Shown here: one piece after another, positions 1 to 17,320 of the stretch
Numbering within the stretch: position 1 is the first letter of the stretch
How the letters are laid out: each line of letters opens with the position of its first letter
Assembly: GCF_030013595.1 (NCBI RefSeq)
Contig: NZ_CP122768.1
Reading direction: 5' to 3' (one strand)
Length of the DNA: 64,000 bases
From: Escherichia coli
GTDB taxonomy: Bacteria; Pseudomonadota; Gammaproteobacteria; Enterobacterales; Enterobacteriaceae
Translations under genes and position numbers: made by a program
The notes under the pieces: model-generated
Databases searched by the model: none
What the model saw: only the letters and a program-made list of their open reading frames with translations
What the model was told of the DNA's origin: nothing

Positions 1-103
1 ACTGTAATGCTCTGTTTGGTTCATTGCACCAGTTTAATGCTGCACTTTCGTTACCTTCAAAAAGATCAATAGCCTTTTGTATAACATCATTTTTTGTCAG
101 CAT
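1..103 (-). CDS. Partial ORF cut by window edge; N-terminal segment resembling DUF2384 (Xre/MbcA/ParS antitoxin C-terminal domain)
   Basis: Minus-strand translation from ATG at 101-103 reads MLTKNDVIQKAIDLFEGNESAALNWCNEPNRALQ, matching my recollection of the DUF2384 core (A..lFGg.e.A..WL..PnpaL). It overlaps the stop of the upstream Xre ORF in another frame and may be its frameshifted continuation. Confidence 0.35.
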   Translation of the reverse strand, partial: MLTKNDVIQKAIDLFEGNESAALNWCNEPNRALQ

Positions 104-419
104 GTTTTACACCTGAAGACGTTTTGAGTGCTTCGATAAGGCTACTTCGCTCTTCCTCTGTCATCCGAGATATGAGTAATGCAAGTTCTGCTGTTGTCTG
201 ATCATCACAAAAAAGGTAGTTCAACGGCACGTTTAACTCTGCTGCCATCCGTCGAAGCGTATCAATATCGGGGACATGGCGTCCTTTCTCATAATGATTC
301 ATACGACTGCTAGCCGATGCAGGATCAAAGCCAACAAGGAGACCCAGAGAGCGCTGTGATAAACCAGCCCTGCATCTCGCTTCCTTAAGTCGTTCTGGTA
401 TCGGATTTTTTTCAGACAC
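87..419 (-). CDS. Xre/Cro-C1 family helix-turn-helix transcriptional regulator (110 aa)
   Basis: ORF track; HTH_3-like segment LKEARCRAGLSQRSLGLLVGFDPASASSRMNHYEKGRHVPDIDTLRRMAAELNVPLNYLF. Does not match K-12 HipB from memory. The last codons run through an A6 tract (90-96) immediately before the stop. Confidence 0.8.
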   Translation of the reverse strand: MSEKNPIPERLKEARCRAGLSQRSLGLLVGFDPASASSRMNHYEKGRHVPDIDTLRRMAAELNVPLNYLFCDDQTTAELALLISRMTEEERSSLIEALKTSSGVKHADKK

Positions 420-503
420 TGATTCATCTTCATTGGCCTCGAATGCTTAGATTGTCTAAGTATCTGCCATTGTTGTATACTTAGCAATCCTAAGTTAATA
501 GCC

Positions 504-1076
504 TTGTTTTGTCATATGAATAGCCGAGTAACCAACCCTGAGTCGTACATATTTTCTGCAATCATCTTAATTGGCAAAGATAACTTCACCAGTAACGAAG
601 TAGCAAAAATTCTTATCGAGCGATTTTCACTTCCGAAAAATTATTTAAAGGCAAAAGCTTTTGCTTATAACCAAATTCAATCCCTGGTTAGAAAAGGATT
701 ATTAAACAAAGTAAGAAAAACAGGCGTGTATCAATATTTATACTCAGTCACAGCAGAATTCAATGTCGCAATAGAGTGCGTGAAATTAATTGAGGCAACC
801 CCAAAGTCTTCCTGTCAACTTGTTTCAAGTGCTACCAACCATGAACACAGAAATGTAAATATCCAAATAAAGTCTCTTATTGAAAAATACAGCAGTGAAT
901 TGGCGAAAGTATCAGGAGCAAAGGAGATTTATGAGGAATTGATAGTTGCTGTGCCGAGCAGGGAAAATGAATTCAGGAAGCTTTCTCTTGAACAAGAGAA
1001 AAAACACATCAAGATAAATGAAAAAATAAATACATTAATTGGAATTATTAATCAATCTCTTGCAGTAAGGCAATGA
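504..1076 (+). CDS. Hypothetical protein (190 aa), possible winged-helix DNA-binding N-terminus; divergent from the Xre gene
   Basis: ORF track; AT-rich codon usage; no recognisable catalytic motif. Alternative start at MNSRV (position 516). Confidence 0.5.
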   Translation: MFCHMNSRVTNPESYIFSAIILIGKDNFTSNEVAKILIERFSLPKNYLKAKAFAYNQIQSLVRKGLLNKVRKTGVYQYLYSVTAEFNVAIECVKLIEATPKSSCQLVSSATNHEHRNVNIQIKSLIEKYSSELAKVSGAKEIYEELIVAVPSRENEFRKLSLEQEKKHIKINEKINTLIGIINQSLAVRQ

Positions 1077-1110
1077 ATTTTAGCAAGTATTTGAAGCTAA
1101 ATGGAGTCAT

Positions 1111-1145
1111 GAAAAAGAGAGGGCAAAGCCGAACTCCGCCCTCTC
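1111..1145 (-). terminator. Candidate rho-independent terminator for minus-strand transcripts
   Basis: 8-bp stem GAGAGGGC/GCCCTCTC (1117-1124 / 1138-1145) with a 13-nt loop; on the minus strand it is followed by a U5 run (A-run 1112-1116 on plus). Loop is long, so weak. Confidence 0.3.
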
Positions 1146-1891
1146 CCGTCAAGCACTGATATATCTCATTAAAATGAGATTAACAGCGCGCACTCCTATA
1201 TGCTAGTCGTATATAAATATAATGTCAGCCAGTCCCGGATGCAACTCTTTAATGAAGTTCAGTACTCTCTTTTTTTAGTTATCGAAATGATAGTTGGTAC
1301 AAGGGAACACACGAAGAGGAAAATTGCGATGACTTTGACGCAGAGCATGTTGAGTCTATTATTGCGACCCTCGAAGCTCTGGATGCGTTAGATTTACGCC
1401 ACGGAAGATGGACTGTAAGTATCCCTCCAATAGTGCGACTCACTTACCCAGATTGTAAGTTCAAACGGTCGAAGGCACTAGATTCTGATAAGAATTTGAG
1501 GCGCATGAGTACAGGCATTCGATTGTCAGCTTCTGGGTAGTTGTGGGAATTCTGCTCAAAGTGCCGCTGGCCAAAACATATTGGGCGCTGGTCTGTGGCG
1601 GCAAAATGGTGTCACGTAAAAGATACAGATGTTCCAGTCTATTTTTGCCCAATAACGTGCCCCGGGTTCAGTTTTTTTGCTCGGGACTAAAACGCTTATC
1701 CAGATCAGCCGCCAGCTGTTCAATACTCTTCGTTGAGCCTTTATAAATATACCAATCAAACTGTTAAAAACTCGTTCAAATTCGACCAAATATTATTACT
1801 GGCTGATATTAGTTCGGTTAGGCAAAGCGCAACAAACAACTAAGAAGTGCGCCTCAAAAAATTAATTGTAAGGCGCCCCCCTAAAACACAT

Positions 1892-4219
1892 TTATTCTGT
1901 TATATTTCTTGGCAACATAGAAAAAGATGCTTGAGACAATCCTGCGCGCTTGAATTTATACCGTATATATGTTGACACTTCCATCTCATGGTTTGACAAC
2001 AAAATCTGACGATCTGAAAGCTCTACCCGTAACAAATCACTCAATGAAGCAATGTTAATCTCATCCATTGACTGTACTGGATCATCAATCAGTATAAATG
2101 GATTAAGCGCATATACCCTATTCAATGTTAGGAAAAATGCCAAACCTAATGATGCGATTTGCCCACTACTCATAGACAGGATTGCATCATGATCAGACTT
2201 CAGCGCAGTATTGAATTTGAGTATATCTCCTTTACCGCTCACTATAAACAAACCTAACCCACGCTGATAATTCTGTATGAGTCTTCCACTATATATATGG
2301 AATAACAGCTCTATATCACCAATAGTCTTTTTCGCATACTGTTTCGCAGTGTCGTCCAATTGCCGCCTAAGATTAACAATTTTTGCTTTTATTTTTTTGC
2401 CAGCTTCAATCCTAGAACTGAGCTTATCAAGCTCCGCTACTTTGGACTTGTACTCTTCGCTTTTGAATTTAGAATGAGCGGCTCTGAGATAGGATTCTTT
2501 ATTTTCAAAATCTGAAACACTAAGTGAGGTTATATCTGATGCGTTCAAGAAAGCCATCTCTAAGCTAGATGACCAGTCTAAAGGGAGCACATCCTTTTCT
2601 GGTTTTTTAGCTGTAGCAATAATCCCTTTTGCTTCATTAAACCGTAACAGCAGAGCTGCATCATCAGCCGTAAAACTAAGATCTTTTGATACGCCATAAT
2701 TTACCAACTGCAAAGCCACTTCACTTATGATTGAGAACTTAGATTCTGCTGCTGTGAGAGCCTTAAAAAGCACACTATCGAAATCTTTTGCAACTAGGTC
2801 ACGCTGCTGTGTGAATGCTGTTATCTGTAAATTTAGTAAGTCCTGTATTGACCTTACTGTCTCCTCCAACTTCTGGGCAGAAGCATCTATTTCAGATCGA
2901 ATTCTTTCCGCATTATTTACAGCGGCTTCCTCTAACGCAGCGTAAGTCGCCCATGATAACCCACAGAATGGACAACCGGAAATTTCCAAATCTTCACATT
3001 CTTGGTGTCGCCGCAGCAACTCTGCATGAGCATTTAGTAAATTTACAAGCTTTGCGTTCTTAGCTGCACTATCAGATTTAATTAGATCCCGTGCCTCAAT
3101 GAGACTATTTACACCAACCAAATCAGCAGCGTTCTTAAGACCGTTTAGGTCTACTTCATTTATCTCTGAAGCTGGCTTTCTGAATATCAAAAGATCATGA
3201 TCCAGCCCAACTAGCGTTGACTCCTTTACTTTCAGACCTTCATATCCAGCTACTTCAGAACCCAACTGAAGAGCCAACTTTATATCGACCTCTCTTTTTA
3301 AAAACGCATCAATATTACTATTAGCCTTTCTCGTCAGAACTTCATCAAAGTTCTGATATATTCTAAATATATTCCGTAATTCACGTATCAGAGTTTCAAT
3401 ATCTGTATCATTTACAGCCGATAGAGGCTGTTCAACATCCCAACCAGGTGACGGCGTCGCGGTACTTAACCGCTTGAAGTCAACGGAATTCTCGGCATCT
3501 TGAAACTGACCACTAAGCTGTTTAATTTTTTCATTCAACTCAGCCTGGAGGTCAGTATGCACTTTCCCCGTATAAGATTCCGTAATAATACTTTCTAACT
3601 CGGAGCAATATGATATCTGTCTCGTCAATTTATCGGTATTAATAAGATGCTCAATGCCTTTTTTTCTTTCAGTGGCATCCGTCGAGTACAGGTATCTATT
3701 CTGCCCTTGCTCAAGATAGTTCAATAAAGAGAAATTTTTTAAGAAGTTCTCTCCTAGAATACTCTCTAGTGCTTTAGAATCAAGACTCTCTCCAAACTTA
3801 TCGGAGTCTATACTGCTTATTTCGTAAAGCTTAAAAATAGAGAAGTTATCAGGTGCATTATTATCCGGGTTCGATAAATCCGCTATGGTAGCAACACGAG
3901 CTAGGAAAATTGACTCTCCTGAATCTTGATTTATGAGCTCAGCTCTAATAGCGATGTCGCCCTCTTTATTTCTATTCCAGTATATGTTTTCTTCAAATTG
4001 TTTTTTGCGCGAACGTTTTGCAACTGTTGCATCATTTGTATTGATAATTCTTTGTATAACGCCAGTAAACAAAAGCTCCAACGCATCAAATATGCTAGTT
4101 TTTCCAAAACCATTGGGGCCATCCAAGGTAATCATGGAGGCAGATCGAAAATCAATAGATGTATTTTCAAATGGCTTGAAATTTTCAATCTTGAGGCTGG
4201 ATATTTTCCATTTCTTCAT
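1892..4219 (-). CDS. SMC/Rad50-like ABC ATPase with coiled-coil and CxxC zinc-hook; candidate Lamassu LmuB-like (ABC-3C ATPase) component
   Basis: 775 aa. Walker A GPNGFGKTS (res 34-42), ABC signature MSSGQ, Walker B ILIDDP, H-loop LSNHE near the C-terminus; long central region with CPFC (res 416-419, nt 2963-2974) at about the midpoint. Start overlaps upstream gene stop by 35 nt. Confidence 0.85.
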   Translation of the reverse strand: MKKWKISSLKIENFKPFENTSIDFRSASMITLDGPNGFGKTSIFDALELLFTGVIQRIINTNDATVAKRSRKKQFEENIYWNRNKEGDIAIRAELINQDSGESIFLARVATIADLSNPDNNAPDNFSIFKLYEISSIDSDKFGESLDSKALESILGENFLKNFSLLNYLEQGQNRYLYSTDATERKKGIEHLINTDKLTRQISYCSELESIITESYTGKVHTDLQAELNEKIKQLSGQFQDAENSVDFKRLSTATPSPGWDVEQPLSAVNDTDIETLIRELRNIFRIYQNFDEVLTRKANSNIDAFLKREVDIKLALQLGSEVAGYEGLKVKESTLVGLDHDLLIFRKPASEINEVDLNGLKNAADLVGVNSLIEARDLIKSDSAAKNAKLVNLLNAHAELLRRHQECEDLEISGCPFCGLSWATYAALEEAAVNNAERIRSEIDASAQKLEETVRSIQDLLNLQITAFTQQRDLVAKDFDSVLFKALTAAESKFSIISEVALQLVNYGVSKDLSFTADDAALLLRFNEAKGIIATAKKPEKDVLPLDWSSSLEMAFLNASDITSLSVSDFENKESYLRAAHSKFKSEEYKSKVAELDKLSSRIEAGKKIKAKIVNLRRQLDDTAKQYAKKTIGDIELLFHIYSGRLIQNYQRGLGLFIVSGKGDILKFNTALKSDHDAILSMSSGQIASLGLAFFLTLNRVYALNPFILIDDPVQSMDEINIASLSDLLRVELSDRQILLSNHEMEVSTYIRYKFKRAGLSQASFSMLPRNITE

Positions 4220-4940
4220 GAATCAGAGTCTCGATTAGTTTGTCTGCTTCAATCCCAGATGCAGAAGCATTAAAGATTTTGAGATGAAGACCGGTCAATT
4301 TTTTCTCGGCGAGTGCTTCCTTTACATAAATATCAAGCGGCTTTAGTGAGCTTTCCTTAACAGGAACCTTTACAAATGGAAGCTTTATAAAAATTCTCGC
4401 CGCGACGCTATATAATGTAGGCGATAGTGGTTGATCTCGATATTCTGCAAACATCCTATCATCGACAACAATCGCTGAAACGCTTTCGAAGTTGTGCCCT
4501 TCTAACAACCTAAGCTCTTCCTCGCTGTAATAAAGAAAATATTTTTTAAAATAATATGGATTCTCTTCAATTCCAAACACCTTACTCTCAATTCCATTAA
4601 AATCAACTCGGTGCCTTAATTTATGCAAAATAATCAGATCGGTATTTTTATCGAAAGCAGGATCAGATTTGAATGTTTCAGGAGCATACAGTAACACTAA
4701 TTTATTCAGCACCTGCGGTGATGGTATATTTTCACACTCAACCACAGCGAGGAATCGCTTCCTATCTCCACTATCCTGACTAAAATAAGTCAAAGACTTA
4801 TAATCAACACCTTCAAGACCAGCTAAAGTTTCTCCTGCCGAATACTCTATGGTGACGTCATCTGCTTTAGAATAGTCGCCTGTATTAAACAAAGTAAACT
4901 CATGTTTCAAGGCAGCCTGTAGAACAATATCTTTAATCAT
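4185..4940 (-). CDS. Middle component (251 aa) of the three-gene ATPase operon; candidate LmuC/kleisin-like protein
   Basis: ORF track; overlaps the upstream gene by 8 nt and the downstream gene by 35 nt (translational coupling); AT-rich; no motif recognised by eye. Confidence 0.75.
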   Translation of the reverse strand: MIKDIVLQAALKHEFTLFNTGDYSKADDVTIEYSAGETLAGLEGVDYKSLTYFSQDSGDRKRFLAVVECENIPSPQVLNKLVLLYAPETFKSDPAFDKNTDLIILHKLRHRVDFNGIESKVFGIEENPYYFKKYFLYYSEEELRLLEGHNFESVSAIVVDDRMFAEYRDQPLSPTLYSVAARIFIKLPFVKVPVKESSLKPLDIYVKEALAEKKLTGLHLKIFNASASGIEADKLIETLIHEEMENIQPQD

Positions 4941-6195
4941 TCAACTTCACCCTCGCCTCTTCCTTTGAAATTATTTTTGCATCAAAGGCTTTAGTTATTT
5001 TGTTACGATCCTTACCCATCAATGAAAACTCATCTTCTACAGCATCCCGCGAAGCTCCGGTAGCTGCACAAAATCGCTCAGCGGGTGAAAAAATATTTGC
5101 TCTAGCTGCGATTAGCCATTGATATTCAACTAAGATATCTATCAGCTCTGGATCGCTTTTCAGCTGCTCTATTAGATCTTCAGCAAACCTATGCTCCCGT
5201 CGAGCATTGTCTGCCGAAATTGCTGTTGGCAAATAAAAATCTCCGGCAGAGCACCTATAGTAAGGAGGCTTTTGCTCACTCAGTGGCGCTTTATCTATAT
5301 CGTAGATCACATCCACATAATCATAAACACTGTTCTCACTCACGACCATTGTGGAAGATCCAAAACATAACGACTTCCACAACCATATAAATGGAGTATC
5401 ACCCAACTCTTTAATCTGATCGTAAACATTTGCAACTTTTTGAATAACAGTTCTATCTGCTGTTTTTTCCATTGTATTGGTATACCCATACAATGATTTA
5501 CAAACGGCCATCCTGGCTTGGAACATTTTGTATACAATGTCGTCTTCATGGGTAGCGGTGAGGCTTAATAACTCTACAATCTTCTCACTTTTTAAAGTTT
5601 GAGTAAACGCGGCTTGTGCGGCGCTCATTAACCCATCCTGATTGCACGCGTGTATATATATTACTTGAGCGGCAATATGACTCTGCAAAGCCTCGAACTT
5701 CAAATTCACTAAAAAATCACTGCAAGGTAACTCTTCGGAAACCAGGTACTTCTCAATTTTTGATTTCGTTTTTTCTTCAACATCTTGGAGATAGCAGTAA
5801 GGCAGTCCATCGTAAGTATAAAATTTAACGACATTCCCATTGCTGCCAACAAAATCAGAAGCATCATCAAGGCGCGCAGATGTATGAAAATATCTTTTGG
5901 TAGTCTTATCACACAACATATATGTAGATGCAGCTTTTTCGAGAGCCTCCCTATAGGCAGCTCTTTTATCATCTGCTAGCGCTTTTACCTGATGCGTAGA
6001 AACTGCAACTCCATTTTCAATTATCGAAAAATCATCAATGCTGTCGATTTGCAACTCAAACGACATTTTATTGAGCACACATTCTATGGAATGATAAAGC
6101 GCTAAATGCCCTTGATAAATAAACCCACTCCATGTAGGTGCAGCTGTATGAGGATGGGAGGAAGCCGATTTCGACATGCAATATGTCCTAGGCAA
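4933..6195 (-). CDS. Putative effector (420 aa) of the three-gene operon; candidate LmuA-like protein with possible N-terminal PD-(D/E)xK-type nuclease fold
   Basis: First gene of the minus-strand operon. N-terminal segment GFIYQGHLALYH...IDSIDDFSIIENGVAVSTHQVK contains a D...D...(E/Q)xK-like arrangement; assignment is by eye only. Alternative start at M7 (position 6177). Confidence 0.75.
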   Translation of the reverse strand: MPRTYCMSKSASSHPHTAAPTWSGFIYQGHLALYHSIECVLNKMSFELQIDSIDDFSIIENGVAVSTHQVKALADDKRAAYREALEKAASTYMLCDKTTKRYFHTSARLDDASDFVGSNGNVVKFYTYDGLPYCYLQDVEEKTKSKIEKYLVSEELPCSDFLVNLKFEALQSHIAAQVIYIHACNQDGLMSAAQAAFTQTLKSEKIVELLSLTATHEDDIVYKMFQARMAVCKSLYGYTNTMEKTADRTVIQKVANVYDQIKELGDTPFIWLWKSLCFGSSTMVVSENSVYDYVDVIYDIDKAPLSEQKPPYYRCSAGDFYLPTAISADNARREHRFAEDLIEQLKSDPELIDILVEYQWLIAARANIFSPAERFCAATGASRDAVEDEFSLMGKDRNKITKAFDAKIISKEEARVKLND

Positions 6196-6524
6196 ATTTA
6201 GAGACAGAGTCAGAAGTAACCTTCTAACTCAGTAGAATATGATCTTAATTTCTGTATCCGATGTTTATATTTTTTGTTGAACGCGCCCAGCGGCGTTATG
6301 AAAACTTCCTTGATTGTCATTTTTATGCATTCTCTTGATCGATAGGAATTTAAATCCCAAAAAGATTAAAAAAACACCCAAAAACGGATGTTTATTCGAC
6401 ACTGCCTGCGTGCCATGAGTGCACCGCCATCAATTAAATGGATCTTATCGAGTGATACTGTATATCACTGATGGTTTTTTACTCCATTCCCCTGAAAATG
6501 GACGCAACTTCCCCGATGCGGCTC

Positions 6525-7712
6525 TCAGCCGCACACCCGCTGTTGCGCCAGTGGCTCATGCATCAGGACCAGCTCTGTCAGACGGTAGCCCCGCTTCAGC
6601 CCCGTAAAACGCATCTGACATCCGCACAGGATGCACTTTAGCGGGTCAACCTTCAGTAACCGCTGATACATCCCTCTCCACCTGATTTGCATCGCCGTCT
6701 TTCTCACCGTCTCCGTTATGACGTACACAACATCTTCCAGTAACCGGCGCTTTACCGGACTCAGGAAACCGTAGTACCTCACCATACGGAACCCCTTATC
6801 CGCCACATGCCAGGAGAACCTTTCCATAAACTCATCACCACTCATCACCAGGTATTCTTCCCGTTTTGTCCGGTGACTGTTGTAACGCAGACCAATTTCA
6901 TCCTGACCAGCATAGTGCTCCAGACGGCTCATCGGCACCGGCGGTTTTTTCAGGTAAGAGCCGAAGTACACCGCCACATGTGTGGCGTTATCCATCACCC
7001 GGGATACGTTGACATTCCAGCCCCGCCGGTAATGACTGTCCAGGAAGCGATTCCAGTCCCGTCTGCTGCTTCCTTCAACTGCCAGCGCATCCGGTATCAC
7101 CAGCTCCGGGTATTTTCGTGACAGTAACCACGTTATCCTGTAACGCCACATGCTCATCACCTTACGGGCGTAAAAATGAAGGTTTTTCCAGGTGTGGTCT
7201 GGTGTCACGCCGCCGGCCGTTGTCGACAGGTGAATGTGCGGATGCCACTGCTGGTCACGTCCCCATGTGTGGATGACCGTGAATATCCCCGGCACCACAT
7301 CTGCCTGGCGGCAGATTTCCTGTATCACATCCGCAGCAATGCGGCTCATCTCTGCCAGTAACCACCGGTTGTGGAACACCAGGGACCAGTACTGGCAGGG
7401 AAGTGTGAACACAATATGCTGCCACGGACAGTCGGGAACCAGACTCAGCAGATACTGTATCCACTGTGCGCCAGCCTTCACTCCGCAGTGCGGGCAGGAG
7501 CGACTTTTACACCGGAAGCAGACCTTTTTTGTGTGGCAACAGTCCGGAGATGAACAGCACCACTGTGTGTACCCCATCAGCGTGGTTCCGCACGCCATGA
7601 TTTTTGTCACCGACTCAATGACTACCGGACGCACTGAACCTTCCGGTTGTTTCTCCAGCCAGTTAAGCCAGCGGTTTCCCTGCTGAAAAATGTCGGCAAA
7701 ACGGGGAAGCAT
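6525..7712 (-). CDS. tnpA: IS91-family transposase TnpA
   Basis: N-terminal Cys-rich zinc-binding region (CCSSPDCCH...CFRCKSRSCPHCG), HUH motif HPHIH, conserved Tyr-containing C-terminal region. Likely start at MLPRF (7712), sharing one nucleotide with the orf121 stop; ORF track extends to 7757. Confidence 0.85.
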   Translation of the reverse strand: MLPRFADIFQQGNRWLNWLEKQPEGSVRPVVIESVTKIMACGTTLMGYTQWCCSSPDCCHTKKVCFRCKSRSCPHCGVKAGAQWIQYLLSLVPDCPWQHIVFTLPCQYWSLVFHNRWLLAEMSRIAADVIQEICRQADVVPGIFTVIHTWGRDQQWHPHIHLSTTAGGVTPDHTWKNLHFYARKVMSMWRYRITWLLSRKYPELVIPDALAVEGSSRRDWNRFLDSHYRRGWNVNVSRVMDNATHVAVYFGSYLKKPPVPMSRLEHYAGQDEIGLRYNSHRTKREEYLVMSGDEFMERFSWHVADKGFRMVRYYGFLSPVKRRLLEDVVYVITETVRKTAMQIRWRGMYQRLLKVDPLKCILCGCQMRFTGLKRGYRLTELVLMHEPLAQQRVCG

Positions 7713-8077
7713 CAGAAGGGCGGGGGGACTCCGTCCGGCCAGTGAACCGTGCCACACTCCGGGCAGTACATGCCGCCGGCGCTGATACCGGCAAGAATGG
7801 TCGCAAACTCCCGCTCCGTGCAGCGGGCTATTTCAGGATACCCTTCGTCATCGACACGAACAAACCAGAAGACCAGCTTTTTGTTTCCGGCATCCACAAA
7901 GAAGGGAATATTCAGGTCTGCGCAGCACTCAACGGCATCGTCAAAATTATCAAAGCGCAGAGCTTCTGCGTCTTCTTCGTCAAAGAAGTCATCGTCGTGA
8001 AGCTTCACGACATAGCGGGGAAGTTTGCTTCTTTGAGGGGCAGGTTTTCGTTTACGGGGTTTAGCTGAACGGGACAT
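7712..8077 (-). CDS. IS91 accessory ORF (ORF121-like, 121 aa)
   Basis: 121-aa ORF immediately upstream of and overlapping tnpA, as in IS91. Confidence 0.65.
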   Translation of the reverse strand: MSRSAKPRKRKPAPQRSKLPRYVVKLHDDDFFDEEDAEALRFDNFDDAVECCADLNIPFFVDAGNKKLVFWFVRVDDEGYPEIARCTEREFATILAGISAGGMYCPECGTVHWPDGVPPPF

Positions 8078-8964
8078 ATAACTACCTGAAAGACAATGAT
8101 ATTGTCTGTTTTTATAACGGTAATTTCAGGCCATGACAAGCCGCAGCCGCCAAGCTGCCTACTCGAGCGATATCGCTATGATATCACCGAATGTAACATA
8201 CCTGTAGGGTCAAAAAAAGGGTCAGCCAAACATTCTGGAGTGTTCGGTATCGTTGGTACCATTCATGCAAAATGGACTTAAATCTTAAGAAAGACACTCC
8301 ATTAGCTTAAGCTTCCCTACCTTACCCTACCAATACACCTAGCCAGCCGTGAGAACGCTACCGCCATCAGAGGCATTAGTCCCGATTAAGTATCGATGCA
8401 ACCAAATGTTACCAAAATTCATGAATTGTTCAAGAAGGCAATCAGATAATCCCTAAAGCTTTATGGGCCTGGTTATGCGATTACATTGGGAAATGGTTCA
8501 TGAACAGAAGTAGAGCAAGCTGCCAAGAAATGCTCATAAGAGGCGAATTTCCTGTTAGTTCATGAAGCCACCTGGAAGTGAATTCATCTTTCTATTAAAA
8601 ATATTCATTTAAAGCAAAGAGATATGTCATCTGTGGTTTATGAACTGGATTCTCGCTCAACATAAGTTAAATGTGGTGGGTTTGTTCTTAAGTTCATGTG
8701 TTCCGCTCTTTCAGTAGCTTAACTGATGAATCAGTCAGCAGCTCTTGCCGTGCAAGCTACGCGGCGGTTCGTACCAGATTGGCCACCTCCATCTCCTGGT
8801 TCGCTTTCCCCTCCCCCCGGTAAACCTCACCCAACGTTAATTAATGATGTCAGTATGTGGGCGCTATCCTTGTATGTAAAATCCACTGACGATTATGCCC
8901 ATCTGTGAAAAAAACTCACAATGCCATTCGATGCATCTCCATACTGAACGAGGCGTTATCGTCT

Positions 8965-9864
8965 TTATCGCCCCGTAGTGGATATCAGAAAATCAATCAG
9001 GGCCTTCACTCTTTTCGTTTTACCCGCGTTTTTGGGGTAATAGAGATACACTGGCGGGTAGGTTTTCCAGTAGCTCTCCATCACCGGAATAAAGCGCTCC
9101 CTGTCCGGCTGTAACTGCCAGACAGGCTCAAACAAGCGCCCAATTCCCAGCCCGTTACGGATCCCGTCTGCCATAACGTCAATATCGTTGCTGATTAACT
9201 GCCCCGGCATCTCAACGGTCAACTGCTCACCGCGATCGTTCAGGAGCAGCGGAAGGATGCGGTTGTTGGTGATAAAACGGTAACCAATCAGCTGGTGATG
9301 ACAGAGATCTGCCGGCACTTCAGGCGTTCCATGTCGGGAGAGATACGCTGAGGATGCATATAATCCTTCACGAAACGGTTTCATTAACGGTCGGGCCACC
9401 ACCCCTCCCTCAAGAATATCGCCAAAACGGATCCCCAGATCAAAACGCTCTTTGATGATATTCACGGTACCGTCGTAGACCGAAATTTCTAACTGTATAC
9501 CCGGATATTGCTGACAGAATTCTGCCATCGCAGGCTTAAGAATTAACAGGTAGGCAAAACGCGAGAGCGTAATTCGCACCATCCCAGAGGGCTCCTGATG
9601 CTGGTCGCGAATGCTTTCAAGCGAGTTTTCCAGCGACTCCACCGCCGCAGCGGTCTGTTCCAGCAATAATTGACCGGTTTCCGTCAGCTCTATACGGCGG
9701 GTCGTACGCACAAAAAGCGGATGGCCGATATACTCTTCCAGCAGCTTTAGTGCATTGCTGACGGAGGGAGGCGTAATTTCCAGTTTCCTTGCGGCTGCCG
9801 AAATATTGCCCTCCCGCGCAATGCTCTGGAAGATGCGAATCTGGTTATAAAGAGCGTTATTCAT
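8965..9864 (-). CDS. LysR-family transcriptional regulator
   Basis: 299 aa; N-terminal HTH (ISAAARKLEITPPSVSNALKLLEE) and LysR substrate-binding domain; divergent from the downstream oxidoreductase operon. Confidence 0.9.
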   Translation of the reverse strand: MNNALYNQIRIFQSIAREGNISAAARKLEITPPSVSNALKLLEEYIGHPLFVRTTRRIELTETGQLLLEQTAAAVESLENSLESIRDQHQEPSGMVRITLSRFAYLLILKPAMAEFCQQYPGIQLEISVYDGTVNIIKERFDLGIRFGDILEGGVVARPLMKPFREGLYASSAYLSRHGTPEVPADLCHHQLIGYRFITNNRILPLLLNDRGEQLTVEMPGQLISNDIDVMADGIRNGLGIGRLFEPVWQLQPDRERFIPVMESYWKTYPPVYLYYPKNAGKTKRVKALIDFLISTTGR

Positions 9865-10000
9865 AATGTTTTCCTAAAGCAATTCTCGCCTGATTATTAA
9901 GTACAGTCTAAAAATGCTTAAGTCAATGACCCTCTAATCTTCCTGAAATACGCCTCTTATACTTTAGTCTCTTTCTACTACGACCTGAGTTCAGGAGACT

Positions 10001-10312
10001 ATGATGCGAATTTTATGTCTGGATATCCCTGCCCCTGGAGCATCGCTGGAGAAATATGCTCCGCACCTCAACGCTGAAGCGCTGCACGCCTGGGGATTGT
10101 ATAAATCAGGCTTCATCCGCGACATCTACTTCCGTCAGGACAGACCTGGCGTCGCTATTTTTCTTGAATGTGACTCTGTCGATGAAGCGATGAACGTTAT
10201 GGCCGAATTCCCGTTGGCAAAAGCAGGCTTACTAAGCTTCGAGTGTATACCGCTTGGCTCCTTTATTAACTGGGAAAATCTCTTCGCCGATGAATTTAAA
10301 AATAAAGAGTGA
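10001..10312 (+). CDS. Small alpha+beta-barrel protein (YciI/muconolactone isomerase/Dabb-like), 103 aa
   Basis: ORF track; size and operon position; product assignment is tentative. Stop overlaps the next gene start (ATGA-type). Confidence 0.55.
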   Translation: MMRILCLDIPAPGASLEKYAPHLNAEALHAWGLYKSGFIRDIYFRQDRPGVAIFLECDSVDEAMNVMAEFPLAKAGLLSFECIPLGSFINWENLFADEFKNKE

Positions 10313-11010
10313 GGACCGATATGAAACCTGCATATAAACCAGTGCTATGTGTCGTTTCCAGCCATCCGATTAAAGGCGCATCCGGTGTACCAACCGGTTT
10401 TTTCCTGGCCGAGCTGACTCATCCGCTGAAAGTACTGGAAGATGCCGGAATAAAAACAACAATAGCCAGTATTCGCGGGGGGCAGCCACCGGTGGATGGA
10501 TTTGACCTCAGCGACCCTGTTAACGCCTGGTACTGGAACGAAACCGATTTTCAGCAGCGCCTGGCAACAACACCTGCGTTATCCGAGCTGAAAGGTGCCG
10601 ATTACAGCGCAGTTTTCTTTGCAGGTGGTCATGGGACCATGTGGGATTTCCGTGATAATCAGGATGCCCAGCGTATTATCCGCGAAGTGTATGAAAGTGA
10701 TGGGATTGTCTCAGCCGTCTGCCACGGGCCTGCGGCATTGGTTGACGCAAAACTCAGTAGCGGCGAATACCTGATAAAAGGGAAAAATGTGGCGGCCTTT
10801 ACCAACAAGGAAGAGGAAGAAGTTCACACAACAGATGTGGTTCCCTTCCTGCTTGAAACCGCACTTCGCGAGCATGGTGCGCTTTATCATGAAGCTCCAA
10901 ACTGGTCTGAAAACGTGGTTACCGACGATCGCCTTATCACGGGGCAGAATCCCGCTTCAGCACATGGGGTTGGTGTGGCGCTGTTAAATGCACTCCGCCG
11001 GACAGCTTAA
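10309..11010 (+). CDS. DJ-1/PfpI (ThiJ) family type-1 glutamine amidotransferase-like protein
   Basis: 233 aa; nucleophile-elbow-like AVCHGPAAL motif typical of DJ-1/PfpI proteins. Confidence 0.75.
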   Translation: MRTDMKPAYKPVLCVVSSHPIKGASGVPTGFFLAELTHPLKVLEDAGIKTTIASIRGGQPPVDGFDLSDPVNAWYWNETDFQQRLATTPALSELKGADYSAVFFAGGHGTMWDFRDNQDAQRIIREVYESDGIVSAVCHGPAALVDAKLSSGEYLIKGKNVAAFTNKEEEEVHTTDVVPFLLETALREHGALYHEAPNWSENVVTDDRLITGQNPASAHGVGVALLNALRRTA

Positions 11011-11083
11011 TTAATTCATCGTTACTCACCTTACTTGGCCGGTTTAAGTCAGCCACGATCCGGCCTTTTTTCAGGAGCTGAAT

Positions 11084-12031
11084 ATGAAAACACTACCTCC
11101 AGTCGCACTAGGTACATGGTCCTGGAGCACAGGCTTTGCCGGCGGCGACACCGTCTTTGGTAATCATCTTTCTGATACTCAGATGGCAGAAGTGTTCACT
11201 GCGGCCATGAGTAAGGGCCTCAATCTCTGGGATACCGCAGCAGTATATGGTATGGGGAGTTCCGAGACTGTGCTGGGAGCATTAGTCCGTCAGTTTCCCC
11301 GCGAGAACATAATTTTATCCACCAAATTCACGCCGCAGATTGCGGACAAGCAGTCTGCGCAGCCTGTCAGCGATATGCTTGAGGCCAGCCTTGGGCGCCT
11401 GGGCGTGGACGCGATTGATATCTACTGGATCCATAATCCCCTCGACGTCGAAAAATGGACGCCAGGACTGATCCCACTTTTACAAAGCGGTAAGGTAAAA
11501 CGCGTAGGTGTTTCCAACCACAATCTGGCACAAATCAGACGCGCCAATGAAATCCTTAACGCTTCCGGTTATTCCCTCAGTGCAGTACAAAATCACTACA
11601 GCCTGCTCTATCGCGCTTCTGAAGAGGCCGGGATCCTTGATTATTGCCGACAAAATAACATCACGTTCTTTGCTTACATGGTCCTGGAGCAAGGCGCGCT
11701 CAGTGGTCGTTATGATTCAAATCATCCCATGCCTGCCGGGAGTGGCCGGGCCGAAAGTTATAACGCCGTACTGCCGCAGATAGAAAGACTAACCGCCGCC
11801 ATGAAAAAAATGGGAGCCGAAAGGAATGCCAGCGTGGCACAGATAGCCATCGCATGGGCTATTGCGAAAGGTACCCTTCCCCTCGTTGGTGCGACTAAAG
11901 TCCATCACGTTCTGGACGCCGCCTGCGCTTCAGACATCCAGTTACGCGATGAGGAAATCATCCTGCTGGAACAACTCGCCGCAGAGACCAGAGTGGATAC
12001 ACGAGGCGCCTGGGAAAAACCGATGGTGTAA
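11084..12031 (+). CDS. Aldo/keto reductase family oxidoreductase
   Basis: 315 aa; AKR-like sequence (LWDTAAVYGMGSSE..., ...GVSNHNLAQI...). Confidence 0.85.
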   Translation: MKTLPPVALGTWSWSTGFAGGDTVFGNHLSDTQMAEVFTAAMSKGLNLWDTAAVYGMGSSETVLGALVRQFPRENIILSTKFTPQIADKQSAQPVSDMLEASLGRLGVDAIDIYWIHNPLDVEKWTPGLIPLLQSGKVKRVGVSNHNLAQIRRANEILNASGYSLSAVQNHYSLLYRASEEAGILDYCRQNNITFFAYMVLEQGALSGRYDSNHPMPAGSGRAESYNAVLPQIERLTAAMKKMGAERNASVAQIAIAWAIAKGTLPLVGATKVHHVLDAACASDIQLRDEEIILLEQLAAETRVDTRGAWEKPMV

Positions 12032-12133
12032 AGCCCGTCCGGAACAGACTGTCATGAATGACACACACGAACGGGCTGTTCCGGGTGATTCTAATCTGTA
12101 TCACTTTTACTGCTTTGTATGAATGGTGAGAAT

Positions 12134-12812
12134 ATGAAAATCATTTGCCTCGAAGAAAATTATCTCGACAGCGAGTTAGGGCGAGCGTGTATGCCTGTTG
12201 CGCTTGAGCAGGCACCTTTCCTTGGCGACTGGGGGAAAACCGTCGCTGATGGTCATAATCCTGACCGACTCCCTGCTTTCCCGCTTTAATAAACTGAATG
12301 TGCCACTCTATCTTCATCCCGGGTTACCGCTTAAAAGCGTACAGCAGGCCTACTTCACGGGCTTCAGCGCAGAGGTCAACGCCAGGCTTTCTATGTTTGC
12401 CTGGGGCTGGCATCACGAAGCGGGGATCCATTTGTTGCGGCTGATGTTATCGGGTGCATTTGATAAATATCCCCACTTGCAGGTAATCAGTGGCCACTGG
12501 GGGGAGATGTTACCCTTCTGGCTCCAGCGTCTTGATGACAGCCTACCACTGGCTGCAACGGGTCTGTCACGCACGCTAACGAGAACCTTCCAGCAACACG
12601 TTTACGTTACCCCGTCAGGTATGCTGACACTGCCGCACTTCAAGTTTATCTACGCGTTAATGGGGGCTGAAAGGATCCTGTTCTCCGTCGATTATCCCTA
12701 TCAGACCCCTGGACGGTGTAAAAACCTTTATAGACAGTCTGCCCGTCAACAAGGCTGAAAAAGAGGCCATCGCGTTTCGCAATGCAGAACGTTTACTGGG
12801 CATCACGGTTTA
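12134..12812 (+). pseudogene. Disrupted amidohydrolase-2 family gene (frameshifted/truncated)
   Basis: Three consecutive frames carry pieces: MKIICLEENY... (12134-), the 186-aa ORF 12198-12758 (…ISGHWGEMLPFWLQRLDD…FSVDYPYQ…) and a C-terminal tail …KEAIAFRNAERLLGITV ending ~12812. No single intact ORF. Confidence 0.55.
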
Positions 12813-12963
12813 GTTCACCGTTTCATGATGACTGAGCACATTGTGATCAGCCGACAATTATTAGTTTTTGCCTAAAAGTGAATGAGCCTTTACTGCTCTA
12901 AAAAAATAATGTTGTCACTCTATACTGGATTTAATATTCACCAAAGATGTTTAACTGATTGAA

Positions 12964-13536
12964 ATGAAAAATATCCTTGTTATTTCAGGTCATCCTGAGC
13001 TTACCCATTCCGTCGCCAATGCCACTATTCTTGATGAAGTGGAGACCGCCCTTCCCGATGTTGAGATTCGTCGTCTGGACAGGCTCTATCCGGATGGCAA
13101 ATTCAACATCGCGGCGGAGCAGAAAAGCCTGCTCAGGGCCGATGTGATTGTCTGGCAGTTCCCTTTTTCCTGGTATGGGCTGCCAGGATTAATGAAAAAA
13201 TGGCTGGACGAGGTCTTTGTTCACGGCTTCGCGCATGGCTCAACGGCGAAACTGGGCGGTAAAAAGCTGATCCTCTCCTTTACAACGGGAGCGCCAGAGG
13301 AGCTCTATACCGTCGACAGTTTCTTTGGCCATACCATTGAAGAGTATCTTATTCCGTTCGAAACCACGGCAAGGCTGTGCAATCTTGAGCTGCTGGCGCC
13401 GGTTTATACCTGCGGTATCAGCTATGCCGACCGGGATGCCGACAAAATCGCGCAGCAAAAAACGCTTGCCCGGGAACACGCTTCAAGGCTTGTCGAACTG
13501 CTCAATTCCGTCGTGAATAATCCAGAGGGAGAATAA
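12964..13536 (+). CDS. Flavodoxin-like NAD(P)H dehydrogenase (quinone) family protein
   Basis: 190 aa; MKNILVISGHPE... N-terminus and size typical of NAD(P)H:quinone oxidoreductase / KefF-like proteins. Confidence 0.75.
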   Translation: MKNILVISGHPELTHSVANATILDEVETALPDVEIRRLDRLYPDGKFNIAAEQKSLLRADVIVWQFPFSWYGLPGLMKKWLDEVFVHGFAHGSTAKLGGKKLILSFTTGAPEELYTVDSFFGHTIEEYLIPFETTARLCNLELLAPVYTCGISYADRDADKIAQQKTLAREHASRLVELLNSVVNNPEGE

Positions 13537-13538
13537 CA

Positions 13539-14558
13539 ATGCAGTATACCCGGCTCGGTAAAAGTGACTTACTTGTTTCCCGCATCTGCATGGGATGCAT
13601 GGGGTTTGGCGATCCGTCGACGGGTCAGCATAGCTGGACGCTGGACGAAACAGCAAGCCGCGACATCATTCGCTATGGCCTTGAAAAGGGCATCAACTTT
13701 TACGATACCGCTATAGCCTACCAGAATGGCTCCAGTGAGCGATACGTTGGCCGGGCATTACGGGAGATGGCGAAACGCGATGATATCGTCCTGGCCACCA
13801 AGTTTCTGCCGCGAACCCCCGCACAAATTGCCGGAGGGATCAGCGGAAAAGAGGCAATCGCTCAATCCCTTGACCAGAGCCTGAAGAATCTGGGGATGGA
13901 CTATATCGACCTCTACATCTACCACATCTGGGATTACAACACGCCCATTATCGACGTGCTTGAAGCGTTACATACCGCTGTTACTGCTGGCAAAGTACGA
14001 GCTGTTGGTATTTCAAACTGCTATGCCTGGCAGCTGGCGAAGGCGAACGCCCTTGCTGAACGCGAAGGGCTGACGCCCTTTGTTTCCGTACAGAGCCACT
14101 ACAATCTAATTATGCGCGAAGATGAACGGGAGCTCTTCGGCCTGTGCACTGAGGATAATATCGCAATGACCCCCTATAGCGCGCTGGCCAGCGGCCGCCT
14201 CTCTCGTAAAGAAGGCTATACACGGCGAGCCACAGAGGATGACTATGCGCGTGGAAAATATGACAGCACGGCTGAACAGGATCGCAACATTATTGAGCGT
14301 GTAGCCGAACTGGCCGAACGTCATCTGGTGTCAATGACGGAAATATCTCTCGCTTGGCTGCTGACAAAAGTCACATCACCTGTCGTAGGGGCTACAAAAA
14401 AAGCTCATGTCGATGGCGCGGTAAACGCAGTAAATCTTCAACTAAGTCCGGAGGAAATTCAGTTTCTGGAAGAAACCTACCAGCCGCATGTTCTGACGGG
14501 GATCATGGCGCAAAATACGCCGCAAACGAAAGATGTTAAGCAGGTCTGGATGCGATAG
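13539..14558 (+). CDS. Aldo/keto reductase family oxidoreductase (Tas/YajO-like)
   Basis: 339 aa; AKR hallmarks (…INFYDTAIAYQNGSSE…, …GISNCYAWQ…). Confidence 0.85.
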   Translation: MQYTRLGKSDLLVSRICMGCMGFGDPSTGQHSWTLDETASRDIIRYGLEKGINFYDTAIAYQNGSSERYVGRALREMAKRDDIVLATKFLPRTPAQIAGGISGKEAIAQSLDQSLKNLGMDYIDLYIYHIWDYNTPIIDVLEALHTAVTAGKVRAVGISNCYAWQLAKANALAEREGLTPFVSVQSHYNLIMREDERELFGLCTEDNIAMTPYSALASGRLSRKEGYTRRATEDDYARGKYDSTAEQDRNIIERVAELAERHLVSMTEISLAWLLTKVTSPVVGATKKAHVDGAVNAVNLQLSPEEIQFLEETYQPHVLTGIMAQNTPQTKDVKQVWMR

Positions 14559-14673
14559 CCCTTATTCACTTTTCCTCCTCTCGTCTTTGAGAGCGCCAGT
14601 AGCGGTCGGTTACGTTCTTACCAGCACCAGTTGATCGAACGTCTTAAACAGTAATGTCAGTAAAAAGATCATC

Positions 14674-15399
14674 GTGAAAAAGACTTTTATGCTTTTAATT
14701 TGCATGCTAATAAGCAGCCCTGTCTTTGCAACAAAACCGGACGCGCCGAATAAGCCGGAGATGAATATCTTCGAGCTCGGCATCAGACCCGATCGGGACA
14801 ACGACTTTGCAGACGTGGCCAGACAGACGATTTCCGCTTCGGTTGATCATGAAGCTGGTACACTGGCGATGTATGCCCTGAAACGCAGCGACAATTCAGG
14901 TCAGGCATTCATGTTCGAACTCTATGAAAATGAGCGTGCTTATCGCAAACATCTCAATGCCGCCCCATACAAAGCATTCGCTGCTCGTGCACCTGACATT
15001 ATTGACAGGAAGAAGAAAATTACCCTGGAGCCACAGTTTCTGGGCGACAAACACATCATACCGAATGAACGAACTATCAATAATCTGGTGATCGTCGAAG
15101 TAAAGCCTGAATTTCAGAGCGAATTTAGAAACATCGTCCTTCCTGAAATGGTCGAGTCGCTCAAAGTAGAGAAAGGCGTGTTAGCCATGTATGCCGGTAC
15201 AGATTCAGAGACTCCAAAACGATGGTATTTCTATGAGATTTACGCCAGTGAGGAGGATTATCAACTGCACCGACAAACGCTGCACTTCCTGGATTACCTC
15301 AGGCAAACGGCGCATATGAGCGCCAGGAAGGACGCAATCCCGGTAAAACCGGTATTTCTTCGTAACAAAGGCGGAATCAAACAGGAGCCGCAACGTTGA
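14674..15399 (+). CDS. Secreted tandem ABM (antibiotic-biosynthesis-monooxygenase-like) domain protein
   Basis: 241 aa; N-terminal signal-peptide-like MKKTFMLLICMLISSPVFA; two repeats of similar length, each with an ...AMYAL/AMYAG...YE.Y...Y..H pattern. Confidence 0.65.
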   Translation: MKKTFMLLICMLISSPVFATKPDAPNKPEMNIFELGIRPDRDNDFADVARQTISASVDHEAGTLAMYALKRSDNSGQAFMFELYENERAYRKHLNAAPYKAFAARAPDIIDRKKKITLEPQFLGDKHIIPNERTINNLVIVEVKPEFQSEFRNIVLPEMVESLKVEKGVLAMYAGTDSETPKRWYFYEIYASEEDYQLHRQTLHFLDYLRQTAHMSARKDAIPVKPVFLRNKGGIKQEPQR

Positions 15400-15414
15400 C
15401 CAGTAAGGATTAAC

Positions 15415-16218
15415 ATGAAAAGCGTACTTGCAGCAGCGGCTATGTCGCTTGTTATTTCTGATTTTGCCAATGCTGAGGAAACAAGAGGTAAAGCTATGAT
15501 GAAAATAGAACCGTCAGCGATTTCGGAAGCTGATATTCGTTCCGTCTCACCGGCTCTCGCGCGCTTTGGTCGCGAAGCTATTACTGAAGATCTGTGGACA
15601 CGCGACGCCCTCTCACCGAGGGATCGTAGTGTGGTGACCGTCGCCATGCTGATTGCCCGCAACCAGCCTGCCGAGCTTAAGCACTATATTGACGTCGCTC
15701 TCGATAGCGGCGTGACGCCAGCGGAATTATCAGAAATCATTACCCATCTGGCGTTCTACTCAGGTTGGCCAAATGCAATGTCAGCCGTCAGCGTGACCAA
15801 AGCAGTATTTGAAACTCGTGGCGTCACGGCAGATGCACTTCCTGAAGCTTCTCCGGACCTGCTTCCTCTCAATCAGGAAGCAGAAAAGCAGCGTTCAGAG
15901 ACAGTGGAAAAAAATGTTGGCCCAATATCTCCAGGCCTGGTTAAATTCACTGCTGATCCACTCTTCCTGGATCTCTGGCAAAGACCCGCGCTGAAACCCC
16001 GCGACAGAAGCCTGATTACGGTCAGCGCCTTAATCGCATCCGGACAGAGCGCGCAGATTGGCTATCACCTCAATAGAGCAATGGATAATGGACTTTCTGT
16101 TGAGGAAGCTGGTGAGATCGTTACCCAGGCCGCCTTCTATGCTGGCTGGCCAAACGCATTTACCGCTGCTCCGGTTGTGGGAGAGGTGCTAAACAATCGA
16201 TCATCGAGTAAAAGGTAA
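15415..16218 (+). CDS. Tandem carboxymuconolactone-decarboxylase (CMD) family protein, possibly exported
   Basis: 267 aa; two repeats each with ...LW.R.ALSPRDRS..TVA.LIA... and ...HL.RA.D.G...E..E...H.AFY.GWPNA... motifs; hydrophobic N-terminus. Confidence 0.7.
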   Translation: MKSVLAAAAMSLVISDFANAEETRGKAMMKIEPSAISEADIRSVSPALARFGREAITEDLWTRDALSPRDRSVVTVAMLIARNQPAELKHYIDVALDSGVTPAELSEIITHLAFYSGWPNAMSAVSVTKAVFETRGVTADALPEASPDLLPLNQEAEKQRSETVEKNVGPISPGLVKFTADPLFLDLWQRPALKPRDRSLITVSALIASGQSAQIGYHLNRAMDNGLSVEEAGEIVTQAAFYAGWPNAFTAAPVVGEVLNNRSSSKR

Positions 16219-16632
16219 CATTACTGAACACTAAAACCTGACGCACATCACAAAATTAGAACGATCAGTTCATGAACCAACAGACGTGACATCGAGTGAT
16301 TTATGGACAGCGTTTAACACAGTTATGAACCAAAACTGAGTTCATAACTGTGAGTTTGAATCGTCATTTGATTAATATCCATTTAAAACAGTTTGTTATG
16401 CTGTTTCTGGTGCTGAAGTCAATTATGTATATCCCTCAAACCCAGAATAGTTAAATGGAATTTGAGTGATGCGAAGCGATTTTACGGTCGTCGTTATTAC
16501 TTCAGGGTTCCAGAACATAAAGCCTCTCCTCTTTCATGATTGGCCTGTGCATACCGGATATAGGCTGGCTGGTATGCAGGTTTGCCGTTTGCCGCATCTT
16601 CCCTGCGTTGAAGAGTCAGGCTGGCAAACCGC

Positions 16633-16887
16633 GTGCAAATGAACACCCCCTCTTTCCATCAACACTTCAGACAGCTTGCGGGAATGAGTCCACTCCGGTA
16701 TCAGAAATGGCTACGCCTCAATGAAGCCAGGCGACTGATGCTGAATGAACATTACGATGTCACCACTGCAGCCTATGCTGTCGGTTACGAAAGCTTATCC
16801 CATTTCAGTCGGGAATATTCGCGGATGTTTGGAGAGTCACCTAAGAGAGATATTGCCAGGTTAAGAAAGTCTGTCGGTCAGCTTTAA
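16633..16887 (+). pseudogene. yneL: AraC-family regulator remnant (C-terminal HTH only), yneL-like
   Basis: 84-aa ORF carrying only an AraC C-terminal HTH (…FHQHFRQLAGMSPLRYQKWLRLNEARRLML…LSHFSREYSRMFGESP…); no N-terminal domain upstream. Matches the position of the K-12 yneL remnant next to the yde fimbrial genes. Confidence 0.6.
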
Positions 16888-17320
16888 TAAACCCTGCACT
16901 TATCTGTTTAAAGCAATTCCGTGTTAGTTACACCAGGCAAACATTAACTATGGCTAATGATTTATAGCCATATAAACCATTGGTCGCTCTTGACCTTTCC
17001 TGACACTTCCCTTGTTCGCAATAATATTCTGTTTAGTCGCTGTTTATAAATAACATGCATAATGAAATCGTAATGTTATTTAGCGACATAAAATGTCTTT
17101 GCAAATACTCTCTACAACAAGTGCTGCAATAAACTTGTTGTGATTAGGTGTCCTTGTAATTTAAAGATATTATCGTTCTTCGTGAAATGTAATAACCCTG
17201 GAAACTATATTCTCAGGGCAATATCCCATCAAGAATGATTCTTGTTTTATAAGCAATAACAGAATGACTTAATTGTTAACTTTCTTTATTCAGCTACTTA
17301 AATATAAATTTTGGAGAATT

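Follow-up and report, generated by a model that had tools for sequence, protein, structure and literature searches.

The short AraC-type reading frame located between the dif side and the F9 fimbrial genes of the 64,000-nt stretch of Escherichia coli DNA analyzed here (the window) is the known pseudogene yneL, i.e., the C-terminal 88 codons of a lost AraC-type regulator. With a probability of roughly 85%, it is a dead fragment of a dif-proximal module that was eroded differently in each lineage, and an accessory block was added later at the end of dif, the dimer-resolution site of the chromosome. The window as a whole represents the terminus region of E. coli, from the hipA/dif side to the F9 fimbrial operon (ydeQRST) and ydeP, and holds three scars of a single module that collapsed through two internal deletions. 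The remnant is part of the variable dif flank and not of the fimbrial locus. The stub itself was already annotated (as yneL, or as a partial helix-turn-helix gene by PGAP); what can now be given is its origin, namely, the C-terminal end of an AraC_N-type regulator whose gene once formed a pair with that of an alpha/beta hydrolase beside dif. The papers that could be searched describe neither this origin nor the non-nested scar patterns, nor do they mention the end of dif as a place of insertion.

The identity of the stub is supported by profile, alignment, and annotation evidence. Its open reading frame (16633-16887, plus strand) encodes 84 aa from a GTG start, with the frame open from 16612; the earliest start codons, GTG at 16633 and ATG at 16639, correspond to residues 221 and 223 of an intact relative. 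Membership of the AraC-type HTH group was judged by the profiles PF12833 and PF00165, and the stub matches Pfam HTH_18 with an E-value of 3.9e-22 (78.8 bits, cut-off 33.6) and HTH_AraC with an E-value of 1.3e-8. In strain Ecol_316, which is 99.3% identical to the window in the stub region, PGAP labels the counterpart of window 16621-16887 as 'helix-turn-helix transcriptional regulator, incomplete, missing N-terminus'. Aligned with the intact E. coli protein WP_000622442.1, the stub shows 90% amino acid identity from L217 to the end, and at the nucleotide level it is 85-90% identical to the intact genes of other genera and of the argW island. The initial annotation was thus right in recognizing only the C-terminal HTH of an AraC-type regulator, but its start at 16536 does not hold: the ATG at that position opens a 62-aa ORF (16536-16724) in a frame that differs from the HTH frame; the ATG also overlaps the start codon of a minus-strand DUF2255 gene scar. 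Homology to the AraC gene at the DNA level starts exactly at 16621 (Table 1).

Table 1. Features of the dif flank in the window, and the parts of the module kept by each type of E. coli genome, the latter in coordinates of the Klebsiella-type locus L006
Feature	Position	Strand	Description
GTTAAAT	8666..8672	+	junction of the two-recombinase/ABC-3C island and the LysR...CMD block
Accessory block	8673..16449	.	bounded by the two GTTAAAT heptamers
GTTAAAT, last 7 nt of the dif XerD arm	16450..16456	+	right junction of the accessory block; O157/K-12 homology starts at 16450
DUF2255 gene 5'-end scar	16464..16537 (about)	-	start codon 16537-16535; ~first 25 codons, with a 15-nt internal deletion
Alpha/beta-hydrolase gene scar	16559..16618	-	residues 225-244 of 364; 60 bp
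AraC-family pseudogene remnant (yneL-type)	16621..16887	+	codons 217-304 of a 304-aa AraC_N + HTH_18 regulator, plus stop codon
Right edge of the eroded module	16888..16907	.	B2-type homology begins at 16908, 16923 or 16987
Kept in K-12 type	L006: DUF2255 5' end; 5859-5940; 8178-8399		5859-5940, spacer + hydrolase 3' end; 8178-8399, regulator with 1-nt frameshift
Kept in window/O157 type	L006: DUF2255 5' end; 6295-6354; 8121-8399		regulator from 8121
Kept in B2 type (APEC)	L006: 6197-6297		the only part kept, abutting the F9 upstream region; regulator DNA absent
Kept in fourth class	L006: 8203-8399		the only part kept

An N-terminal domain that might have been overlooked upstream of the stub is absent in every frame. 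All three frames are interrupted by stops, AraC_N (PF06719) is missing, no Pfam family is matched by the ORFs upstream of the stub, and the DNA there belongs to other genes on the opposite strand. From the stub, 216 of 304 residues are gone, among them the entire AraC_N domain. In the intact relative, residues 196-294 are covered by alignments with AraC-type DNA-binding domains of solved structure; the bipartite DNA-binding domain (~99 residues, two HTH motifs) is likewise incomplete in the stub, which begins at residue 217: its first 21 residues are missing, or 25-27 if translation starts at the GTG or ATG, corresponding to the first helix and part of the first HTH. A continuation of the AraC frame upstream of 16621 through stops, suggested by likenesses ('YRI', 'ASSLR', 'VEE') to a Klebsiella-type 128-aa ORF, was rejected, as BLAST identifies this DNA as a minus-strand hydrolase fragment; the resemblance is due to imperfect microhomology at the deletion junction (GCGTTGAAGAG vs GCGTCGAGGAA). 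A naturally short regulator family was also considered, as all matches of an initial protein search were shorter than 155 aa. An exhaustive profile search returned relatives of typically 300-320 aa with the matched region at the C-terminus, and the short entries turned out to be pseudogene ORFs, contig ends, or frameshifted assemblies, with many split genes in loci L004-L007.

Intact close relatives are 304-309 aa in length and combine AraC_N (PF06719; residues 31-182, E 1.1e-44) with HTH_18 (residues 217-291), the architecture of the AraC_N-type AraC/XylS regulators of ~300-320 aa. The E. coli regulator YqhC is a studied example of this type. Unlike in YqhC, whose partner is an aldehyde reductase, the original partner of the stub was an alpha/beta hydrolase, joined by DUF2255 in some loci. 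Intact relatives were recovered from the E. coli argW/intS island, Citrobacter youngae, two Enterobacter species, and Klebsiella michiganensis, and are transcribed divergently from the hydrolase gene in the order DUF2255 (minus; in some loci), hydrolase (minus), and regulator (plus); the Klebsiella-type DUF2255 ORF matches Pfam DUF2255 with an E-value of 1.5e-37. Divergent transcription is the usual layout of an AraC-type regulator and its target, and by analogy with other such pairs the intact regulator presumably controlled the hydrolase operon.

The linkage of this module to dif is widespread. An intact hydrolase/regulator pair lies 0.1-3.5 kb to the right of dif, oriented like the E. coli scars, in C. 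youngae, Enterobacter vonholyi, Enterobacter sp. MGH 24, and Klebsiella-type loci; the pairs of K. michiganensis and of the E. coli argW island have no dif nearby. The cross-genus survey is thin, with four loci obtained from the contig scan. Intact modules are 88-95% identical between genera, which seems high for vertically inherited or core genes, and the module may itself spread horizontally and have reached the dif flank repeatedly. Downstream of the intact pairs, DeoR/FGGY/DeoC genes or AcrB-type and other genes are found, and never fimbrial genes in the loci examined. A nine-locus alignment shows that the downstream flanks diverge in every genus ~12 nt past the stop codon, and in the window homology to other genera ends at 16899, 12 bp past the stop codon of the stub. 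An attachment site at this right end, past the AraC stop codon, was considered and dropped, the same alignment showing only flank divergence within ~12 nt. The argW/intS island carries a second, horizontally acquired copy of the module (L012 9076-12520, E. coli BS90R-A): the hydrolase and AraC genes are both intact, a partial iron-containing alcohol dehydrogenase gene has entered the space between them, and the intS integrase gene and tRNA-Arg lie alongside. This copy, with the regulator WP_000622442.1 (304 aa), is present in 86 E. coli genomes and is closest to the Citrobacter copies (96% amino acid identity). The intact copies, i.e., those in other genera and in the argW island of these 86 genomes, can be used to study the function that was lost.

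In the window, both other genes of the module have left traces directly upstream of the regulator fragment, with nucleotide matches of 91-94% over 45-60 nt (E-values from 1e-11 to 1e-20). The hydrolase scar is 93.3% identical to L006 6295-6354 and 94.5% identical to L012 9438-9492 of the argW island in blastn, and 85% identical over 20 aa in tblastn (E 2.5e-8). For the DUF2255 scar, blastn aligns 16493-16537 at 91% (45 nt) to L006 5710-5753, with a gapped alignment reaching ~16464, and tblastn recovers aa 1-28 (E 2e-4). The same three scars with the same junctions follow directly after dif in O157-type genomes that are free of the accessory block.

Compared to K-12, the stub shares locus, strand, and gene of origin with yneL (b1506). 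The K-12-type locus reads hipB-hipA-[partial HTH pseudogene]-ydeT-ydeS-ydeR-ydeQ-ydeP, and the remnant lies between hipA/dif and the F9 genes, on the strand of the operon, in the gene orders of K-12-type genomes, O157, and Ecol_316. The assignment to the position of K-12 yneL is thereby upheld, with a 95% nucleotide match over window 16678-17142 between hipA and ydeT. The two alleles are truncated differently: K-12 yneL starts at residue 236 (window 16678), 19 codons later than the window allele with its start at 217, and is frameshifted by a 1-nt deletion, whereas the window allele is in frame. Upstream, the window allele has a hydrolase fragment where K-12 has a spacer piece, and unlike K-12 yneL it is separated from dif by inserted DNA.

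Scar patterns were expressed in the coordinates of L006, and three types and a fourth class can be distinguished (Table 1). No set is nested within any other, and no pattern can therefore have arisen from another one, which implies a complete module in the common ancestor that was deleted separately per lineage. By this comparison of sequences, erosion appears to be independent in each lineage, and the module would predate the split of K-12, O157, and B2. An intact module at dif is absent from every E. coli genome sampled, and the ancestral state is a reconstruction and not an observation. Among 5426 complete genomes, 4278 carry some form of the remnant (1191 the long form, ~3000 the short form), and 1148 (~21%) carry none; window 16451-16899 has no match in ~21% of genomes. 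Erosion of the module is still under way: in a further allele, found on 87 contigs, the hydrolase scar has been deleted between two AGGCTGGC repeats. The three non-nested patterns offer a cheap and phylogenetically informative lineage marker at the replication terminus. As a separate observation, the B2 scar (L009 6890-6990, APEC) and the window scar at 16559-16618 are adjacent, non-overlapping pieces of the hydrolase gene, with breakpoints that meet within 0-3 nt (…CAGTTTAT | TATAGGCTGG…); local microhomology may have produced this by coincidence, or both breakpoints may go back to a single older break or insertion.

The boundary of the accessory DNA coincides with dif. The 28-mer GGTGCGCATAATGTATATTATGTTAAAT is the experimentally confirmed E. 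coli dif (PMC3025954), which lies in the yneL-hipA spacer (10.1101/2025.09.02.673814). It occurs ~80 bp past hipA in K-12, O157, Ecol_316, APEC, U14A, strain 1105, HCP5S3_I2, and LR-48; no more than ~10 nt separate its last base from the DUF2255 scar in O157 and K-12. In the sampled matches of a search that hit 5385 genomes, hipA-dif homology ends at the last base of dif, whatever comes next. A dif-like 28-mer (at most 9 mismatches) was sought across the window, and none was found; hipBA and dif lie outside it, ~4.7 kb to the left by comparison with HCP5S3_I2.

The window does keep the last 7 nt of dif, GTTAAAT, at the right junction of the accessory block. This block encodes a LysR regulator (minus strand), a hypothetical protein, DJ-1/PfpI, an aldo-keto reductase, amidohydrolase fragments, a flavodoxin-like NAD(P)H oxidoreductase, an aldo-keto reductase, an ABM monooxygenase, and a carboxymuconolactone decarboxylase (CMD), and no recombinase gene. 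In Ecol_316, the same block is placed directly between an intact dif and the scars, and it is absent from O157, K-12, and B2 types. The earlier view that the region upstream of the remnant is accessory is borne out, as 459 of the 5426 complete E. coli genomes carry the LysR...CMD junction and the remnant sits in older DNA. Other parts of that view need to be revised. Rather than starting immediately upstream of the remnant, the accessory region ends at 16449/16450, 171 bp before the AraC homology, with two scars in between. The break for which the remnant was proposed as a landmark coincides with the dif site of other E. coli genomes; the stub is valid as a landmark, but the landmark of the breakpoint itself is dif. 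Nor does the remnant lie just inside a conserved block, as B2-type genomes lack it and match the window only from 16908, 16923 or 16987 onward; the universally shared edge of the fimbrial block is at 16908-16987. Strain-specific DNA annotated in this region should be interpreted not as random rearrangement but as insertions that target a defined position next to a sequence essential for chromosome maintenance; such insertions also shift dif relative to its neighbors. Within the block, the amidohydrolase gene (12198-12758) is fragmentary: its 186-aa ORF covers only positions 128-253 of the Amidohydro_2 profile, and Ecol_316 annotates the gene as two overlapping pieces. The cargo of the block is therefore itself decaying.

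Taken together, the favored course of events is as follows. Ancestral E. coli carried DUF2255 (minus), the alpha/beta-hydrolase gene (minus), and the divergent 304-aa AraC_N + HTH_18 regulator gene (plus) immediately to the right of dif, and deletions that differed between lineages then destroyed this module. In the window/O157 type, one deletion fused the spacer between the DUF2255 and hydrolase genes to mid-hydrolase sequence, and another connected hydrolase codon 225 with regulator codon 217, both presumably aided by short imperfect repeats. The accessory block was inserted later at the outer end of dif (core GTTAAAT), which pushed the scars at least 7.8 kb away from dif; the mechanism was most likely site-specific recombination like that of the neighboring two-integrase island. 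The stub itself probably does nothing and serves as a historical marker.

That the stub might still act as a stand-alone small HTH protein under selection, in the manner of MarA or SoxS, is very improbable, even though the 84-aa ORF is intact in the window/O157 type, is 90% identical to intact relatives at the protein level, and corresponds in K-12 to a gene with array expression. Such a mini-regulator would lack the first 21-27 of ~99 residues of its DNA-binding domain; the commonest allele, that of the K-12 type, is even shorter and frameshifted, and 21% of genomes do without the stub. Remnant alleles are moreover enriched in non-synonymous changes. Between the window and O157 remnants dN/dS is 0.40 (12 differences, 6 amino acid changes), a value not significantly different from 0.1 or 1, and both of the two differences between the window and Ecol_316 stubs are non-synonymous, although these numbers are small. 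The lower dN/dS of 0.07-0.19 between the stub and intact genes mostly reflects its past as a working gene. No promoter-like site was found between 16150 and 16633, nor a terminator upstream of the remnant; an Rfam search returned no family, and no Shine-Dalgarno sequence is obvious by eye before GTG 16633 or ATG 16639. K-12 yneL has a regulated microarray signal and no known function in a published survey (PMC9308461), and it is without known function elsewhere as well (10.1101/2025.09.02.673814); in view of this microarray signal, yneL may be transcribed. The stub is almost certainly without function and probably makes no functional protein.

Two other origins were weighed against the dif-proximal module. 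The initial annotation saw the remnant as the ancestral edge of the fimbrial locus, and a relic of the regulator of the F9 (ydeQRST) operon would fit its position 434 bp upstream of the fimA-like major subunit gene, on the same strand, and its being the annotated feature nearest to the operon in most E. coli. This origin is nevertheless as improbable as a surviving mini-regulator. Intact relatives adjoin an alpha/beta hydrolase and never fimbrial genes in the loci examined, the neighbors of the remnant in the window itself are hydrolase and DUF2255 scars, the F9 operon is intact in B2 strains that have no remnant, and homology to other genera stops 12 bp past the stop codon. Least probable is that the remnant is not older resident DNA but arrived with the accessory block, representing the final, decayed gene of the LysR...CMD element. 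In its favor, the Klebsiella-type locus L008 has a LysR regulator and aldo-keto reductases beside a truncated copy of the same AraC gene. However, O157-type genomes without the block have the identical three scars and junctions directly after dif, and the GTTAAAT end of the block sits upstream of the scars. In L008, furthermore, the LysR and reductase genes are on the opposite side of dif from the remnant, and the DNA homology of this cargo to the window block amounts to a 40-nt match only. Erosion of a dif-proximal hydrolase/regulator module is thus favored over both.

How the block reached the end of dif can be considered in light of its neighbor. Window 1-8672 forms the right-hand part of a second island, which ends at GTTAAAT and carries an ABC-3C defense system, consisting of an AAA ATPase, MComp1, and a CTD1/Cap4-nuclease protein (genes 1892-4219, 4185-4940, and 4933-6195, all on the minus strand). 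A 1817-bp insertion at 6345-8161, absent from HCP5S3_I2 and LR-48, encodes an IS91-family (Y2_Tnp / Zn_Tnp_IS91) transposase (6525-7757, minus strand). The left end of the island, as seen in LR-48 and HCP5S3_I2, directly adjoins dif and encodes two tyrosine recombinases (456 and 516 aa) and a 788-aa protein; its right end falls exactly at the position of window 8672 in LR-48, among other genomes. Beyond the terminal GTTAAAT, LR-48 continues with K-12-type scars, and HCP5S3_I2 and the window with the LysR block; finding one element at the same 7 nt in two different backgrounds speaks for site-specific insertion. A AGTTCATGAAC-type palindromic motif occurs six times in the 64-kb window against 1.3 expected, a count that none of 100 shuffles reaches, and all six copies lie within 180 bp of the two right ends, which ties the block, although it lacks a recombinase, to the family of the island. 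Together with a perfect 13-nt inverted repeat (CACAGTTATGAAC/GTTCATAACTGTG) at 16318-16352, the motif marks 8495-8646, 8687-8698, and 16267-16278. Motif and repeat may be binding sites of a recombinase.

Several known types of element resemble these islands in part. In integrative mobile elements exploiting Xer (IMEX; e.g., the CTX and TLC phages and the gonococcal island), tandem arrays of foreign DNA likewise build up at dif and leave a functional dif on one side. They differ from the elements described here, in which the junctions of the window block are at or after the last dif base with the 7-nt repeat alone, and the neighboring island has two tyrosine recombinases of its own. Xer-mediated insertion of the block was considered on this model and set aside, as the crossover falls outside the central region of dif and the right junction has GTTAAAT alone. 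E. coli CEA106S (NZ_CP166722.1), unlike the window blocks, has a zonular-occludens-toxin (Zot) family gene after hipA and a homology break 12 nt inside dif, the pattern expected of an XerCD-integrated filamentous phage. The nearest described elements are the Gamma-Mobile-Trio (GMT) islands, which resemble the left island in having one end that encodes a tyrosine recombinase, an integrase, and a further protein, in their defense cargo (ABC-3C in the left island), and in inserting into a specific short site; in the description consulted, dif is not named as a target (10.1101/2023.03.28.534373). Against NCBIfam, the left island reaches only 22.1 bits for GmtY (cut-off 340) and 89.5 bits for 'integrase_1' (cut-off 350), GmtZ and GmtX have no match in it, and the 788-aa third protein has no family match. 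In the B2-type loci L009, L010, and L011, dif is followed by the same ~200 bp, which are similar to the left end of the islands with two recombinases in LR-48 and HCP5S3_I2; the cargo beyond differs, i.e., an SDR oxidoreductase gene, nothing, and a 5.8-kb hydrolase/AEC/CMD/LysR block, respectively. This suggests that the B2 slots are filled by decayed relatives of the two-recombinase islands.

Tentatively, these observations can be read jointly, as a possibility with the odds still against it: the outer end of dif (GTTAAAT, XerD arm) would, in E. coli and related bacteria, be a dedicated attachment site for islands that use their own pair of tyrosine recombinases and not XerCD. Such islands would spare dif, stack in tandem, and carry ABC-3C or redox/detoxification cargo, with the LysR...CMD block, which has the same AGTTCATGAAC-type end motif, as a recombinase-less member. 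If this is true, repeated insertion and imprecise loss would explain the lineage-specific whittling of the dif-proximal module, including yneL. Nothing specific on islands that target the dif flank in E. coli was found in the library searched.

Lastly, the F9 operon downstream of the remnant is itself undeleted in the window. Window 17143-20424, covering the F9 major subunit, the chaperone, and the 5' part of the usher gene, is the segment missing from K-12-type genomes, in which ydeT represents a truncated usher. The window usher gene (18999-21651) has one extra base at ~19415 relative to Ecol_316 (CACCACCA vs CACCA-CT), which splits it into ORFs 18999-19448 and 19387-21651, as either a frameshift pseudogene or a sequencing error.
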